This document shows positions 4,547 to 50,760 of a DNA stretch of 64,000 nt, one piece after another; the stretch's first letter is position 1, and each line of letters begins with the position of its first letter. This stretch comes from an uncultured virus (IMG/VR IMGVR_UViG_3300032167_000030) (lineage: Duplodnaviria > Heunggongvirae > Uroviricota > Caudoviricetes), in IMG/VR virus record IMGVR_UViG_3300032167_000030, one strand, 5' to 3'. The notes under the pieces are model-generated. The model saw nothing but the letters and a program-made list of their open reading frames with translations, was not told the DNA's origin and made no database searches. The position numbers and the translations under genes are program-made.

Positions 4547-5335
4547 ATGATAATTACTTTAACTGGTGCTAATTTTAGCACATCTAACATTGGTACTCTA
4601 TCTTCTTGGAGTATTTCTACTGTTTTAGGTAGTGGTGCTACCTATAGTGGTAATCGTGTTGTTGACAAGGATGCTGCATTAAATGCAACTGTTACTATTG
4701 CTGAAGGCTATGAACTAGGTGCTGCTGGTGTTACTGTTACTATGGGTGGTTCTGCTGTAACTTCTGGCGTTACTGTTAATGGCAATACTATCATTATTAG
4801 TATTGCAAAGGTTACTGGCACTGTTGTTATTAAGGTTCCTACTAAGAATACTGCTACTGGTGAAGATGATAATGGTGGTAATGGAGATGTTGTTGAGCCT
4901 GAAAATCCTGTTGCAAAACATCCATACGCAAATGGGGCAACTATGCCAAGTGACGGTATTATAACTGCAGATATGACTGTAGTTTTAAATCATACCTGGT
5001 TAAATGGAACTGATACTACTTTATTAGACAATCAAGATGAAAGTGCTGGAACAACAAGTACAAACTATTTCTGTTCTTACTTACCTATTGATATTACAGG
5101 TTATACAAAACTTGATATAACTGCAAATAATGAAAATGCAGCTTACTATCAGTTCTTTACTACTGATGGCTCTTATAAATTGACAGGTGCTAGAATTAAA
5201 GTAGACAAAGGTACTACTTTAAATGAACAAAGTATTCCAAGTAAAGCTAAATATTTAATTGTAGCTCATTCTCGTATTAAGGACGATGGTTTAACATATA
5301 GTTACTTCCCCACTAATTTAAAAATTTATAAATAA
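4547..5335 (+). CDS. Tail-associated beta-rich protein
   Basis: Strong RBS; C-terminal domain paralogous to the C-terminus of 5355-7595 (YYQF..YLIVAH..YFPT). Confidence 0.65.
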   Translation: MIITLTGANFSTSNIGTLSSWSISTVLGSGATYSGNRVVDKDAALNATVTIAEGYELGAAGVTVTMGGSAVTSGVTVNGNTIIISIAKVTGTVVIKVPTKNTATGEDDNGGNGDVVEPENPVAKHPYANGATMPSDGIITADMTVVLNHTWLNGTDTTLLDNQDESAGTTSTNYFCSYLPIDITGYTKLDITANNENAAYYQFFTTDGSYKLTGARIKVDKGTTLNEQSIPSKAKYLIVAHSRIKDDGLTYSYFPTNLKIYK

Positions 5336-5354
5336 TAATTAGGGGGTATTTAAG

Positions 5355-7595
5355 ATGTCTTATTTAATTCAAAATTTTGAAAAAGGTCAAACTTTAGAGG
5401 CTTCCCATTTAAATTTAATTGAACAAGGTATCGTTCAATCAGATAAAGAGAGAATTTATCCTATTACATCTACCGGATATTACTCAGCTTCTTGTTCTGC
5501 TGCTTCAAATTCTTCTTATGAAAAATGCACTTTTGATGTAAGAAAATATAGAGGCAGTACAATTATAGTTAATGCTTATCCAAATTCAACTGGATATTGT
5601 ACTTTAATTGGTTCCTCAAAAACAGATATAATTGAGCAGTGGAATTCTGGAACTTGCAAGTATTTGAGTATTCCAGAAACAGCAACAATGCTTTATATTT
5701 CAAATGATTTTGCTAATTTCTCTGATTTTAATATTGAAGTTCCAAAATCTAAAGAACGCCATAAAGGTTTTTTATATTTTGCTGATTTTGCTAATCCCGA
5801 TTCTTTAGATTACAACGATTTTGTAGACCATAAAATCAATGGTACTTTTAAAGATGGTGGCTTAGTTTTAAATACTGGTATTGGAAATGGAATCTTATTA
5901 AATAAAGTTATTTTAGCAGATGCTCAAACTATGGCTGTTGAAGTACAAACAATCACCAATCAAGAAGAAATCTATTTAAGTACTAAAACTACACAAGGTT
6001 CCTGTTCACATGGAACTATGTTATGTGTTAATTTTAAAAATAAAATTATGAAACTAGCAAAAGGAAGTAATGGAGGTAATGTACCTTCTTCTTTCTATAA
6101 GAATGTAGATATTAGCGATGTAGTTGATTCAATTGGTGGTCAAGATAATAATCATCTATTTACAATTAAATTAGAAAAAGCTGATGGTCCTATTAGAGCA
6201 ACAATTATTAATGATCATACAAATAAATCAGTAACTTTCTTAGCCGGATTAGAAACAGTAGCACAAAAGGATGAGTCAAGTACTGGTTTGACTAGAGGAA
6301 AGAGTCCAGTTGGACGTATGTATGATTCTCCACAATTGTTTGTATCATCTGGCTCTCCAGTTATTCGTAAATGGTATGGTCGTACTTGGTGTACTAAACC
6401 CAAGGTTATGTTCTTTGGAGATAGTATTACTCAGGGAACTCATAATCTACCAGACGATGCCTTTGCAATTAGATGTGGTAGATATTTTGGCAATTCTATT
6501 GCTTGTGGTAGAGGTTCTGGAGATATTATGTGTTGTGTTAATACTGTACGTAGTATGGTTCCACGTTTAAAACCTGAAGCTATTGTAGTTACAATCGGCA
6601 CTAATGGTGGTAATAAATATCTATATCAAAAGTTTATTGATATATGTGAGTATTTTAATGTAATTTTAATTTTAAATACTTGCTGGGCTTGTGATGGTCG
6701 TGCTGGAAGTATTAAACCTTTAAATGAACACATTGTTTCTTTAGGACAATTTGGATGTCGCCTTGATTTATTAACTAGTAAAAATAATGTTATTTCTGGT
6801 GGTCAGGATAAAACTTATTTTGCTTCTGATGGAACTCATTTAAGTCCATTAGGAAATACATTGACATATGAAGCTATTACATCTGAATTTAGCTGGTTGC
6901 GTGATAATAGTAACAAGGCTGAATTTGATAGTGAATATAAAGTATATCTTGTATTAGATAGTGGTATTGAATACAGTGGTCCTTCTACAGTACAAAAAGG
7001 ACAGAGTTTTAATGCTACTTTAACTTTAAATAGTGGTTGTTCTTTAGGTAGTGAAGGTATTAGCATTATGATGAGATATGGTGAATTAAAAAATGCTTAT
7101 ACTACTTCTGGAGATGTTACCACTATTAACGTACCAGACGTTAATGGTGATATCTATATCTATGCTGACGTTAAAGGTGGTACTAGTAGTGGTGAAAGTG
7201 AATTACCTGAAGATTTACCAACCGAAGATAAAGTGTTAACTGAATCTGATTTTGAGATATTTGATAATACTTGGATTATGAGTAGTGGTACATCTTTAGC
7301 AACTGCTCAAGATGGTTATTATACTGCTTATTGTCCTATTAAAGGATATTCCAAAATTGATATAACTGCACAAAATAATTTTACCACTTATTATCAGTTT
7401 AGTATTGATGAAGACTTAATTGATTTGAGCGGTTCTCGTCAATCTGTTGAAAAAGGACAGAGCACAACTAATATAGCTGTACCTTCTAACGCTCAATACT
7501 TAATTGTAGCACACCATAGAACTAATTCTACTGATGCTAATGCTGTTGAAGGATATGCTTTATACTTCCCAACTTATATTAAGGCTTATATTTAA
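5355..7595 (+). CDS. Tail spike/receptor-binding protein with SGNH/GDSL esterase domain
   Basis: FFGDS block I, G block II, IGTN block III, DGTH block V; BppU-like N-terminus (QNFEKGQTLEASHLNLIEQGI). Confidence 0.75.
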   Translation: MSYLIQNFEKGQTLEASHLNLIEQGIVQSDKERIYPITSTGYYSASCSAASNSSYEKCTFDVRKYRGSTIIVNAYPNSTGYCTLIGSSKTDIIEQWNSGTCKYLSIPETATMLYISNDFANFSDFNIEVPKSKERHKGFLYFADFANPDSLDYNDFVDHKINGTFKDGGLVLNTGIGNGILLNKVILADAQTMAVEVQTITNQEEIYLSTKTTQGSCSHGTMLCVNFKNKIMKLAKGSNGGNVPSSFYKNVDISDVVDSIGGQDNNHLFTIKLEKADGPIRATIINDHTNKSVTFLAGLETVAQKDESSTGLTRGKSPVGRMYDSPQLFVSSGSPVIRKWYGRTWCTKPKVMFFGDSITQGTHNLPDDAFAIRCGRYFGNSIACGRGSGDIMCCVNTVRSMVPRLKPEAIVVTIGTNGGNKYLYQKFIDICEYFNVILILNTCWACDGRAGSIKPLNEHIVSLGQFGCRLDLLTSKNNVISGGQDKTYFASDGTHLSPLGNTLTYEAITSEFSWLRDNSNKAEFDSEYKVYLVLDSGIEYSGPSTVQKGQSFNATLTLNSGCSLGSEGISIMMRYGELKNAYTTSGDVTTINVPDVNGDIYIYADVKGGTSSGESELPEDLPTEDKVLTESDFEIFDNTWIMSSGTSLATAQDGYYTAYCPIKGYSKIDITAQNNFTTYYQFSIDEDLIDLSGSRQSVEKGQSTTNIAVPSNAQYLIVAHHRTNSTDANAVEGYALYFPTYIKAYI

Positions 7596-37259: not shown

Positions 37260-37360
37260 CTTGAATCTAAACTCCTTTCTATAGTTTTTATTTACTATAG
37301 AAAGAATATATAGATGAAAAGGAGATAGAGATTTAACATTCTCTATCTCCTTTGTTTTAT

Positions 37361-40153
37361 TTATTCTTCTTCATATTCTACTTCTACATATTCACCATTC
37401 TCGATGATATAGTACTTACCATCTGTACCTTGGTAAACACCATTTTCTTCATCTACTAGTTCATAAGTAGTTGCTTTAGTAGTTTTAGTTGTCTTACTAG
37501 ATTTCTTACCTGCAGACTTAACATCATCTTCAATTAGTTCATCTAGCTTATTCATATCAATAGACTGACTAGGTGCAACACCAGCTTCAGGTAGGAACTT
37601 AGAATATTCTTCATGAACTGCTGCATCAAAAGCTTTTCTAAGTTCTGCAGATTCATAGTACTTATTCTGGAATTCCTTAATAGAGAACTTAACATCAGGA
37701 CAAGTATCTAGTTTAAAGCTACGACCTGCACCAGTGATACGACCTAGATCCTTAAGATTAGCAAAGTTTGTTAGTAGGTTATTAACACCCTTCTTCTGTT
37801 CAAATACCATCTTAAAGGATACACCAGCTTCAGTAGAACGAGACTTAACTAGAATACCAGATAGATAGAAACCCTTAATACCAAATTCCTTATCAGTTTC
37901 TAGCTTAGAGCCTGTTTCTAGTTTAGTTAGTGTATTAGTTAGGTAAGAAACTGCTTTACCCAATTTTTTACATTTCTTCATTGTAGTTTATTAAGCTACA
38001 AATTTCTCTATGTTTCCATAGAAGTTGAGACTATATCTTCAAAGATTCCATTTCCTTTTCATTTGAAAAGTAAAATTAGTCGTTGAACTAGTATAAAATA
38101 CTAGATGCTGATTGTTTTATAAATTTTCCAGCATTTAAGAATATACATCAGGCAGTAAATAGTTTACCTGGAATTGACTCATCCTGCTTAAGATAGTTTA
38201 TCTGAGCCTTGGTTCGAGCCATCGGATTAATCAATTGTATTATTAGTACGTTCATTAATCGTACTTAAGTCTTCTATTTTCATAGAAGTTCAGACTATAT
38301 CTTCTAAGTCTTATACTAACTATAGATTTCTATAGTATATAGTCGTTGAACCCTTAATATAAGGGATGCTGATTTATCTTATCGATTTTTCCAGCAATTC
38401 TTAAGATTTTACATTGACAAAAATCTATCAATTTTCTGTGTAATATGATTAACTAGCATTAGAATAATGTTAGCATTCTGCATAGGAGACATAATACGCT
38501 TAAAAACGTTAGTATTTGCCTTTGCAATTGCTGTTGCCAGCTTTTATTTGAAGAATTGTTAGTTCTTCTTCTAAGTATTACTACTTAGATTAGACTATAT
38601 CTTTACTGTTTCCAGTACTCAATATTCACATTGCACTTGCAATGACATAGTCGTTGAACTTATAAACAATTAGAGAAATCTTTTTCTCTACATGTACAAA
38701 ATCCAGTTTCATGTACATCACACATATTGTATCTTGTATCTACACTAATTCCATTTCGTTTAGGTATTTCACAAAGACAGAATTTATATTCCATACTTAC
38801 AGGTAAAATTTCTTTAAATTGATACATAAGATCCAAAAACTTATATTGGTCTTTCTTTTTTGAAAGGATAATATCTTTAATCTTTTTAGTACCATTATAG
38901 TAATCATACTTATAAGTAAAATTTAAACCAAATTTTTCATTGATTTGAGGTGTTAAGTTCATAATATCCTCGTCAGCATAGCTCTTTAAAGCAATTCCTA
39001 TTTCAGTTCTAACATAACCAGAAATTTTAGAACTCTTATTTTTACAATTTCTAGCTGTAGTATAACCATCATCTAAAAACCAAAAGAAAAGAGTAGTTGG
39101 AGTAATATACTCAATTGATGGAAGTTTTCTACTTCTATCATTATTTCTAGTTAATTCATAATAAGTTTCAATTAACTCACTATATTTTGAATAAGAAATT
39201 CTAAAACGACAGATATTAGTCATACTTAATCCTTTTAATTCTGAAAACTCTATGTTATTTTCAGATAAAATATTTTTCTTTAAATCAACATAATCTTTAT
39301 TCTCTATCTTATGTCCAAATGAAATTCTATCAAATGTATCTGTTCTAGCTCTAAATTCAAAACTAGAATCACCTAAACAACATCCAACCATAAAACTTTG
39401 AAAATCTATTTTCATTTTTACAACTCCTAACATATAGAATTTAATTATATGTTAGATTTTGGGTGCGAAAATTAGTGCAATAATTTTTTCAACTGTTTAT
39501 AAGCTGCTGATTTTCTAAATTAGTTTTTCCAGCAATTAAGTGAGTTTTAAATGAGCACATTATGCAATTGCAAGTTTACCCATTGATCCCTTTAGTTCAT
39601 CATCATCCTCGACATCTTCAGGAGCTAACATAGCGACGGAGTCTACAATCATAATTGTAGGAGGTAAGATGTAAACAGGTTTACCACTGCCATCTTTTCT
39701 ACCAGTATCAATCTGAATAGCTTCTTTATTTTCCATCTTAATCTTTTCAATTTCTTTACAAGCTCTAAATAGAGTTTCTACAGAAATATTCTCTTGGAAA
39801 ATTTGATACTTTTCATCATAATGATCAGAAGACCAACCAGTTAGAGCCATAACACGTTCCTTACTAGTAGATCTTTCATAATCATAATGCCATACGTCTG
39901 CTTCTTCAAACTGATCGGCGATATAACATGCCTGCTGAATAATCTTAGAAGTCTTACCAGTACCAGACTGACCAATATCCATCATGATTCTACCGCCTTG
40001 GATACCTAAGTCCATAGTACCATCTGCTTTTCTTACACCATTAATATAGTCAAAAATATCAATACCCGTACGATAAAAAGGAATATATTCTACTTTTTTA
40101 CCTAACTTACCATTATCAATAGCCTTGTTAAACTGTGCTTTTAATAAACCCAT
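37361..40153 (-). CDS. recA: RecA/UvsX-family recombinase, 4 exons: 40153-39578, 38537-38427, 38231-38166, 37960-37361 (450 aa spliced)
   Basis: Walker A GQSGTGKT, DYE, Walker B MIVDSV. Spliced junctions read GSMG|ATAIAKAN..LVNHITQKID|INPMA..ESIPG|GKAVSYL, matching RecA (NQ and PGG.A..Y motifs). Confidence 0.9.
37961..38165 (-). ncRNA. Group I intron (recA intron 3), 205 nt, no ORF
   Basis: P1 CAGGU/GCCUG with U.G; AAAUGCUGGAAA (P), AAUCAGCA (Q), UUCAACGACU (R), AAGAUAUAGUC (S); terminal G. Confidence 0.9.
38232..38426 (-). ncRNA. Group I intron (recA intron 2), 195 nt, no ORF
   Basis: P1 AUUGAU/GUCAAU; AAUUGCUGGAAA, AAUCAGCA, UUCAACGACU, AAGAUAUAGUC; terminal G. Confidence 0.9.
38538..39577 (-). 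mobile_element. Group I intron (recA intron 1), 1040 nt, with homing endonuclease in the P6 loop
   Basis: P1 AAUGGGU/GCUCAUU; P, Q, R and S core elements; ORF lies between Q and R; terminal G. Confidence 0.9.
38660..39415 (-). CDS. Intron-encoded LAGLIDADG homing endonuclease (double-motif type)
   Basis: MVGCCLGDSS and LFFWFLDDG motifs; ATG 39415 after AGGAG. Confidence 0.85.
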   Translation of the reverse strand: MKIDFQSFMVGCCLGDSSFEFRARTDTFDRISFGHKIENKDYVDLKKNILSENNIEFSELKGLSMTNICRFRISYSKYSELIETYYELTRNNDRSRKLPSIEYITPTTLFFWFLDDGYTTARNCKNKSSKISGYVRTEIGIALKSYADEDIMNLTPQINEKFGLNFTYKYDYYNGTKKIKDIILSKKKDQYKFLDLMYQFKEILPVSMEYKFCLCEIPKRNGISVDTRYNMCDVHETGFCTCREKDFSNCL

Positions 40154-49572: not shown

Positions 49573-50760
49573 TTAATCTTTTCGTTCAGTTTTATCAGAG
49601 ATTCTTTCAGATGTAGAAGTTCTACGTTTTCTAGCATCTTCAGTTCTACGCAATTCTAAGCCATCAGTTACTAAGTCTGACATTAATCCAGCGCCTATCA
49701 TAAATACATCAACTGTATTAAGAGTGTATTTATTAGCTGGATCATTTTCTATATCATTTAGAGAACAATAACCCTGTTGTGCTATTTGTTTATATAGCTG
49801 TGTTTTAGCTACACTATCATCAGCTCTTGGACCCATCATCTCTTTTAATCCATCCTCGATTCCCCAAATTGAGGATGCAAAGTTCTCCGCTTCAGTTAAT
49901 CTAGCTACTTTGTCATCGCCAGAAAGCTGATTTGTACGTAGATTACGAGAATCTATTGATAGGCTATAAGAGTTCTTTTTCATCAACATCTGTTGGAGTT
50001 TGCGTATCATTATATCATTATTTCAAGTGTGTAGTCCATTAATCTACACTAATCTTTATATTTCAATAAAGTTTAGACTATATCTTCTATCATATAAGAT
50101 AGTTTTCTTATTTCAGATTCATTTAAATCCTACAAAAATAGTCGTTGAACTAAAAAAAAAGAAGTCACCTGTAAAGACTTCTTCAAAAATGATTTTTTGA
50201 TTATATACTTTTGGAAAGGAGGGATGAGTATAGACCAGCCTTAAAACTATACTCATTAGTATTCTCAGGGTTTTTAGAATACTTTTACGATCTCATGGAG
50301 TTGGGAACGTAATTAAAATATATAAACAAAAATTCATTTAATTTTTTAGCTGCTGATTAACTCTTTACTAAATGAGTATTTCCAGCATTTAAAGAAAATT
50401 TATAAGTTGAGCATATAATGAATTCTTTTACCCAACTGGTACTTTATACTTACTTCTAATTGGATTATCCATATTTCCATTATCACGATAGTATATATAC
50501 TCATCTAATGGAACATCTAGGTATTCTCCAGCTTCAATTAAATCTTTTAGCTTTGGTTCATTTTTATATGGTAAGATTTCCATATAAAAATTTTCCTCAT
50601 CATCTTTTAAGAAATTTTTTGCCCATTTAGAAAATTGATCATCATTCATAGATTTAAAAAAGACTTTATACTTGTTTCCGTTACTACCAGTCTTATCCAT
50701 TAAGTTCATAGTATTGATAATCATAGTTTCTATCTTTTTTCTTTTTTCTTGAATTGTCAA
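49573..50760 (-). CDS. Putative virion RNA polymerase beta C-terminal subunit, 2 exons: 50760-50430 and 50015-49573 (257 aa spliced)
   Basis: Spliced VPVGYIMIRKLQQ..TNQLSG..RLTEAE aligns with RpoB VGYMYMLKL..TQQPLG..RFGEME; late-type promoter at 50803. Confidence 0.75.
50016..50429 (-). ncRNA. Group I intron, 414 nt, with ~190-nt non-coding insert in P6
   Basis: P1 GUUGGGU/GCUCAAC; P10 UCAUUAUAU/AUAUAAUGA; P, Q, R and S elements; terminal G at 50016. Confidence 0.9.

Follow-up and report, generated by a model that had tools for sequence, protein, structure and literature searches.

A uvsX/recA gene of an uncultured jumbo phage that very probably carries three IA2-like group I introns, two of them without P2 and P8

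The DNA considered here is a stretch of 64,000 nucleotides (nt; the window) from an uncultured virus of the Caudoviricetes, IMG/VR record IMGVR_UViG_3300032167_000030. On its minus strand, between positions 40153 and 37361, lie the parts of a UvsX/RecA-type recombinase, for which the list of open reading frames (ORFs) shows only the two large exons, each extending a few codons into an intron before reaching a stop. The question raised by this locus is whether the parts belong to one interrupted gene and, if so, what interrupts it and how little of such an element is left in the shortest interruptions. Our answer is that uvsX/recA of this uncultured ~320-kb jumbo phage, kin of AR9 and PBS1, very probably has three phase-0 IA2-like group I introns.

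Exon 1 (40153-39578; 576 nt, 192 codons) encodes the Walker A motif GQSGTGKT and starts at ATG 40153, a start backed by database homologues, which begin MGLL... It is followed on the same strand by intron 1 (39577-38538; 1040 nt), micro-exon 2 (38537-38427; 111 nt, 37 codons, ATAIAKANTNVFKRIMSPMQNANIILMLVNHITQKID), the ORF-less intron 2 (38426-38232; 195 nt), micro-exon 3 (38231-38166; 66 nt, 22 codons, INPMARTKAQINYLKQDESIPG), the ORF-less intron 3 (38165-37961; 205 nt) and exon 4 (37960-37361; 600 nt, 199 codons plus the stop). Joined together, the four exons form a single open frame of 450 amino acids (aa). All three insertions are located between codons (phase 0) and inside 177 nt of coding sequence, the exon-exon junctions being GGT|GCA, GAT|ATT and GGT|GGT, and an in-frame stop is found 6 codons into each intron. 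The G+C content is 29% in the window, 32-42% in the exons and 26-27% in the introns. A reading of the bare sequence made before this analysis (the sequence-only reading) had claimed the span 37361..40153 and these intron and micro-exon lengths, which proved exact, as well as the continuous 450-aa RecA and the three junctions, which were reproduced as written; it had also said that the ORF track overlooks the micro-exons, and neither is listed there as a gene. An alternative first junction through the repeated GCAATTGCA (GKLAIA|KANT) was rejected, as it leaves the 5' exon without its final U and the homologues read GSMGAT or GSMSAT at this point.

The junctions are independently fixed, since intronless alleles run through all three sites. 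In a 299-kb viral record (L015) with 80% nucleotide identity across the coding sequence, the gene is uninterrupted and the equivalents of the four exons abut exactly (5001-5576, 5577-5687, 5688-5753 and 5754-6365). They abut likewise in a second locus (L016), and the DNA alignments to both contain zero indels at the three junctions. The uvsX genes of AR9 (g086), BpSp (gp154) and MarsHill (gp247) are also annotated as uninterrupted, with the spliced protein aligning to their products gap-free at every junction. The proposed comparison of the spliced protein with intronless homologues, made with L015, L016, AR9, BpSp and MarsHill, is therefore colinear across the micro-exons. Compared to the contiguous gene of L015, micro-exon 2 is 97% and micro-exon 3 is 100% identical in amino acids. 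The ratio of nonsynonymous to synonymous substitution rates (dN/dS) against L015 is 0.083 for exon 1, 0.013 for micro-exon 2 and 0.133 for exon 4, while micro-exon 3 shows 0 nonsynonymous and 11 synonymous differences (dN/dS 0). Because the ratio is low in each of them, the micro-exons are coding sequence under selection, and all exons are by this measure under purifying selection.

These values bear on the view that nothing is spliced here and that the recombinase is split or dead, its pieces being translated separately or not at all. It is noted that gene callers see just two large ORFs and that translation of exon 4 could begin at an in-frame ATG, at 37981. However, neither micro-exon has its own start codon or ribosome-binding site, and yet they keep 97-100% amino acid identity with synonymous sites saturated, and separate pieces would part the ATPase core from the DNA-binding loops. 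We regard an unspliced gene as barely credible, and a single recombinase gene split by introns is the reading followed below.

The host gene product was identified by several profile and sequence comparisons. A tblastn search with exon 1 found UvsX-like recombinases in 21 records at 31-43% identity, the relatives being AR9/PBS1-like Bacillus phages, Staphylococcus jumbo phages, Listeria phage LPJP1 and Yersinia phage phiR1-37, and the intronless orthologue matches PHROG 97 (UvsX-like) with an E-value (E) of 7e-37. The Pfam RecA model gives the host protein 17.1 bits, under its cut-off of 27. A profile of 27 homologues matches chains of E. coli RecA (3cmu and others) with E from 8e-40 to 1e-7 and also the UvsX chains 9gbg and 3io5, and the product has the Walker A motif and the L1/L2 region of a RecA-fold ATPase. 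When this profile is aligned to E. coli RecA, junction 1 falls directly after the equivalent of GDSHMG at the end of L1, junction 2 after the equivalent of NQIRMKIG at the start of a loop, and junction 3 at the loop-terminal GG ahead of NALKFY. Micro-exon 3 corresponds in this alignment to an L2-like loop that is 11 residues longer than that of RecA. The insertions thus cluster round L1/L2, as the sequence-only reading had it; the loop names and residue ranges used for this placement are those customary for RecA.

What interrupts the gene has the hallmarks of group I introns. The end of each upstream exon pairs with an internal guide sequence (IGS) to form a P1 helix with U.G at the 5' splice site: AAUGGGU with GCUCAUU in intron 1 (7 pairs; IGS GCUCAU(U) at ~39556-39550), AUUGAU with GUCAAU in intron 2 (6 pairs; IGS at 38418-38413) and CAGGU with GCCUG in intron 3 (5 pairs; IGS at 38153-38149). 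In intron 3, P1 is directly adjoined by a P10 helix of 6 pairs, GGUAAA with UUUACU, the latter strand at 38159-38154. Every intron ends in G, and its excision restores the host frame exactly. Within each intron the order is TGCTGG, ATCAGCA, TTCAACGACTA and AAGATATAGTCT, which we take to be the classical P, Q, R and S elements. The U.G-containing P1, the P/Q/R/S core and the terminal G that had been attributed to each of the three introns are accordingly all present in the sequence, and so are the P3/P7 pseudoknot, P4 and P6 of the conserved core. The last two elements, an 11-mer and a 10-mer, occur exactly 4 times each in the window, all on the minus strand and always as a pair 57-74 nt apart, three of the pairs lying in uvsX and the fourth in an intron at about 50.1 kb. 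The 319,626-bp record that contains the window (G001), with 100% of the words sampled from it, has 11 occurrences of the paired pattern, compared to 0 for a reversed control.

Such repetition could also mislead an assembler, which may have stitched introns into a gene that is in reality uninterrupted. The record is metagenomic, and the cores are near-identical between copies and identical over 30-40 nt. Against such an artefact, each guide sequence fits its own flanking exon, the flanks are unique, and the first and third sites are also occupied by introns in independent contigs from other samples. We consider a misassembly very improbable and take the introns to be part of the phage genome.

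Membership in the group I family was examined with a covariance model (R1) built from five compact introns outside uvsX, three of them from other genes of G001 and two from other contigs; a further intron (L012) was dropped from the seed because it was misaligned in the MAFFT alignments A2 and A3. The R1 model matches intron 3 (93.3 bits, E 2.8e-14) and intron 2 (88.4 bits, E 2.2e-13) over their full length, and intron 1 in two parts, the 3' half with 37.8 bits (E 2e-4) and the 5' half with 25.8 bits (E 0.03). At E<=0.01 there are 15 R1 matches in G001, only 2 of which pass the general group I model RF00028 of Rfam; these two sibling introns, in other genes of the record, score 57.1 and 56.7 bits against a threshold of 50. 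A 299-kb relative (G002) has 8 R1 matches and an intronless uvsX, its intron content being unlike that of G001. In megablast and blastn searches against cultured phages, only core matches of 36-97 nt were found, and no record covered >=80% of the query.

Intron 1 is the largest of the three and its P6 loop encloses a reading frame. Its R and S elements lie at 38648-38658 and 38593-38602 and its terminal G at 38538, all on the minus strand. Apart from R and S, the helices of intron 1 were assigned by eye: P4 is formed by TGCTGG and ATCAGCA and P6 by CTTATAA...TTATAAG, followed in the 3' part by a P7.2-like hairpin (CATTGC-AAGT-GCAATG), P3' (TGAGT) and P8 (ACTG-GAAA-CAGT). The ORF in the P6 loop (38660..39433, minus strand) has 257 aa when read from ATG 39433; ATG 39415 (251 aa), 7 nt after AGGAG, is the likelier start. 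Its translation contains two LAGLIDADG-type motifs, GCCLGDSS and FLDDGY, and matches the Pfam family PF03161 (LAGLIDADG_2) with 52.2 bits (cut-off 25, E 8.9e-14) and the homing endonuclease PHROG 11023 with E 5.9e-7. It is therefore annotated here as a putative LAGLIDADG homing endonuclease. An ORF-less homologue of intron 1 occupies the same site in another locus (L177).

Introns 2 and 3 are reduced in comparison. Between P3' and the invariant J8/7 segment (AAGAUA) there are 5 nt in intron 2 (just CUUAG) and 4 nt in intron 3 (just (C)UUUG), leaving no P8, which intron 1 has. The distance from the guide sequence to P3 is just 6-11 nt in both, with no room for P2. The sequence-only reading had called these two introns very compact, which is right, and the compactness comes from the absence of P2 and P8. 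The R1 alignment contains 26 matches, 24 of them distinct. Among the distinct members, 7 of 24, from at least four records, have a linker of 3-6 nt and are P8-less, and the other 17 have 13-31 nt that form P8, three of these rows being visibly misaligned. In this alignment, which was fitted to the model structure, 93.7% of cells are paired and 16 of the 21 pairs change on both sides. Covariation is seen in 6/6 pairs of P3 and in 6/6 pairs of the hairpin that follows P7, and it also supports P6; P4 and P7 are near invariant and hence uninformative. None of 500 shuffles reaches the observed values, and slid partners pair in 28-55% of cells. Because the pairs of P3 and of the hairpin covary, the strand order is P7, hairpin, P3'. 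A layout with P3' ahead of the hairpin, which would turn the hairpin into P8, was discarded, as no complement to the 5' strand of P3 is found there in introns 2 and 3 and the covariation puts P3' after the hairpin. Minimum free energy (MFE) folds recover P4, P6, the hairpin, P9 and P9.1 in both introns, with z-scores of -4.2 for intron 2 and -2.3 for intron 3. P5 and P7 appear in the fold of intron 2 only, the P7 strands being paired elsewhere in that of intron 3.

The subgroup can be judged from domain 7 and the 3' end. In IA2 introns the hairpins P7.1 and P7.2 sit between P7 and P3'. P9 and P9.1 are present, and each of the three uvsX introns has a single hairpin in domain 7; this hairpin is followed by GAAAU in intron 3 only, by TTAGT in intron 2 and, as read by eye, by TGAAT in intron 1. 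The retained hairpin matches the second hairpin of two relatives with two hairpins (L177 and L227), by which we identify it with P7.2 in IA2 terms. Subgroup IA2 is characterized by an extended P9 region and, in domain 7, by a pair of hairpins, P7.1 and P7.2 (PMC4227781). On these sequence features, introns 1-3 are best described as IA2-derived. Introns 2 and 3 appear as reduced derivatives that have lost P2, P7.1 and P8 and have kept P1, P3, P4, a short P5, P6, P7, the P7.2-like hairpin, P9, P9.1 and the terminal G. A search by eye of the P9.1 loop and the 3' tail found no consistent substitute pairing for the 4-5-nt linker. The P9.1 loop motif UUAAUGAA / UAACGA is kept across family members with and without P8, which suggests a conserved tertiary contact.

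Several points weigh against reading these elements as three group I introns that are spliced from the transcript. Rfam gives no group I match in the window at the gathering score, and none at E<=10 between 37000 and 40500. RF00028 has 13 matches in G001 at E<=10, none of them on the three introns. The Infernal check with RF00028 proposed at the outset is thus negative for all three, which makes this model unusable as confirmation. An alignment fitted to a model structure favours that structure, which applies to the covariation described above, and the dN/dS values give no date for the insertions. The sequence comes from a metagenome assembly. None of the other loci in an 80-locus sample is interrupted at the second site. 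A P8 helix is missing from introns 2 and 3, and since P8 is normally counted in the conserved core, their unaided catalysis is not assured. A bovine-gut metatranscriptome run contains 5% of the sampled words, representing only conserved intron-core pieces of other organisms. The same run has 10 of 20 records less than 95% alike to the region, and an apparent joint from 38041 to 39527 is not a splice, having a side of 23 nt and linking two intron cores; the run provides no evidence for or against splicing. In regard to the negative Rfam results, a 2025 survey of phage introns notes that phage variants can escape the models of Rfam and GISSD (PMC11878797). With the R1 matches and the hallmarks described above, the group I reading of the three introns is supported by their sequences.

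Related introns show how the reduced structure could have arisen. The closest relative of intron 2 that was found is an intron in another gene of a related phage (L159b). The two agree at 74% of 194 aligned bases, with compensatory changes in P6, in the hairpin and in P9.1. At precisely the places where intron 2 has none, L159b has an additional P2 of 23 nt and P8 of 25 nt, its P3'-J8/7 stretch being 29 nt long. At the third site, residues 246-251, 17 of the 80 metagenomic homologue loci are split or end. Introns at this site are 259 nt (L219), 296 nt (L199) and 300 nt (L227) long, all with P2 and P8, and one (L239:3671-3830) has 160 nt and is again P8-less; the homologues of intron 3 in this size range of 160-300 nt have the ACTGCCT guide region in common. 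A natural deletion series, ~300 to 259 to 205 to 160 nt, can thus be laid out for a single insertion site. The 160-nt intron interrupts a divergent homologue of uvsX at the equivalent of IPG|G, with P1 and P10 of 6 pairs each and an intact terminal G; its P5 and P6 are barely there, and it has no P9.1. If active, it would be far under the usual size of a group I ribozyme. Stubs make up 11 of the 56 homologues from databases; they stop a few residues past ...IPG and are gene calls shortened by an intron at the third site.

The uvsX homologue of L177 (1109-3371) has three introns, at the first site, KQD|ES and IPG|G. The KQD|ES intron lies 15 nt upstream of the IPG|G intron, with a 15-nt exon (GAGAGTATCCCAGGT) between them. 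Another homologue (P0054), of 622 aa, matches the Pfam family LAGLIDADG_3 (PF14528) and ends in ...IPGE...; an intein or an in-frame intron ORF may be present there in addition to a third-site intron.

A layout without P8 occurs outside uvsX as well. A 201-nt intron that lacks both P2 and P8 lies in an RNA polymerase beta-prime gene (L005:1418-1618; ~34.6 kb in G001), and its excision restores ...GAD|FDGD..., part of the ADFDGD motif to which we ascribe a catalytic role in beta-prime. It has just 34.1 bits with RF00028. The host gene was identified as beta-prime by tblastn, and Pfam had no match on the exons flanking the intron.

For the three uvsX introns we infer the following course from their layout and pairings. 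Each would fold after transcription, its guide sequence pairing with the end of the upstream exon to form P1 with U.G at the cut. An external guanosine would attack the 5' splice site, and the freed exon would then attack after the terminal G, joining the exons; in intron 3 the 6-bp P10 would form beside P1. The predicted product is the 450-aa recombinase, in which the end of L1 and the whole L2-like loop would come from the micro-exons of 37 and 22 codons. Intron 1 would be mobile through its LAGLIDADG endonuclease. The ORF-less introns 2 and 3 have probably spread or persisted by being co-converted with intron 1 or with the help of endonucleases that act in trans. More boldly, exon skipping could yield in-frame recombinase variants without the L2 loop, because the micro-exons of 111 and 66 nt are multiples of three and would keep the frame, and because the introns are alike.

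Whether the mini-introns would accomplish this unaided is the more delicate matter. They may be real group I introns that were crippled by the loss of P2 and P8 and now splice only with a helper, for which a phage or host RNA chaperone and a maturase-like activity of the intron-encoded LAGLIDADG protein are candidates. Alternatively, poor splicing may throttle the output of recombinase, or the gene may be decaying. The missing P8 of introns 2 and 3, the failure of RF00028 on both and the fact that splicing is here a prediction from sequence are in accord with such a state, and the at least 15 related introns in the genome could share a helper. However, nothing is missing from P1, P10, the G-binding P7 or J8/7, purifying selection acts on the intact exons that follow the mini-introns, and the P8-less layout is shared by 7 of the 24 distinct members, spread over four or more records and including one at the ADFDGD motif of beta-prime. 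We therefore think crippled mini-introns unlikely. The same observations (intact, selected downstream exons, a layout recurring in several records and the 201-nt example in beta-prime) favour the view that the P8-less design may be functional. That introns 2 and 3, the 160-nt intron of L239 and the 201-nt intron of beta-prime are autonomous self-splicing ribozymes without P2 and P8 is a proposal that we make tentatively, as one with a real prospect of being right that still falls somewhat short of probable.

Two side observations from the window may be added. A fourth intron of the same family is located at 50016-50429 on the minus strand (414 nt, phase 1), with a P1 of GUUGGGU and GCUCAAC, an ORF-less P6 insertion of ~200 nt, a P8 and an R1 score of 42.1 bits; it splits a gene of ~257 aa (exons ~50760-50430 and 50015-49573). 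Directly after the uvsX stop codon there is a terminator-like hairpin of 14 pairs (37318..37353, no strand assigned), one of 3 in the region where 0.6 are expected, and low-scoring Rfam matches to miRNAs and small RNAs at 37.2-37.4 kb are in fact this hairpin.

Phage genes with several introns, AR9-like phages rich in introns and introns in recA have all been published before. The orf142 gene of Staphylococcus phage Twort reportedly has three group I introns and shows exon skipping, a case associated with Landthaler and Shub in 1999. The uvsX gene resembles it in having several related IA2-type, mostly ORF-less introns with short exons between them. Unlike orf142, the host gene here encodes a recombinase, one intron has a LAGLIDADG gene and two introns lack P2 and P8, both of which are said to be present in the crystal structure of the Twort ribozyme. 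Small self-splicing group I introns are usually measured against that of the Azoarcus pre-tRNA-Ile, a subgroup IC3 intron of ~205 nt in a tRNA, which keeps P2 and P8 docked on each other. The phage mini-introns are similar to it in length (195 and 205 nt), in having no ORF and in their minimal periphery. In contrast to the Azoarcus intron, they are IA2-derived, reside in mRNA and have lost both P2 and P8. The putative or degenerate fungal rDNA introns of 56-81 nt, as described in PMC3160393, are a different matter. Exon skipping in genes with two group I introns is on record in PMC10136302.

In AR9 and the MarsHill-like Staphylococcus jumbo phages, one or more introns interrupt many essential genes, with a content that differs between close relatives, according to Korn et al. 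(bioRxiv 10.1101/2020.12.14.422802). The present phage belongs to the same lineage by protein similarity and has the same intron habit. The split genes named in the preprint are those of RNA polymerase subunits, prohead protease, DNA polymerase, terminase and gyrase, and the word UvsX has 0 occurrences in it. The three introns in uvsX contrast with the uninterrupted annotation of this gene in AR9, BpSp and MarsHill. Group I introns in recA are described from the Bacillus cereus group and from phage 0305phi8-36 by Tourasse and Kolsto (2008; PMC2504315). Like the introns studied here, they interrupt a RecA-family gene, are usually without an endonuclease gene and are linked to phages; they differ in being one intron at one site with mixed IA1/IA3 features, where uvsX has three sites occupied at once. 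The new part, for which we have found no published precedent, is that P8 and P2 have both been lost naturally; nothing relevant on group I introns lacking P8 was found in the literature searched, GISSD and the older subscription literature lying outside the search.

The layout of this gene is one more case of a published pattern, the accumulation of mobile group I introns in the best-conserved segments of phage genes for DNA metabolism. Annotation pipelines then report shortened recombinases, such as the 11 stubs among 56 homologues, and screens based on RF00028 undercount phage introns. The homologous pairs with and without P2 and P8 constitute a ready-made experiment on which helices group I ribozymes need. 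If the mini-introns are indeed autonomous ribozymes, they would represent a minimal group I design that exists in nature, is no larger than the Azoarcus intron and seemingly arose repeatedly by deletion from IA2 introns that are extant with both helices. P8 would then be dispensable once its docking partner P2 is gone.

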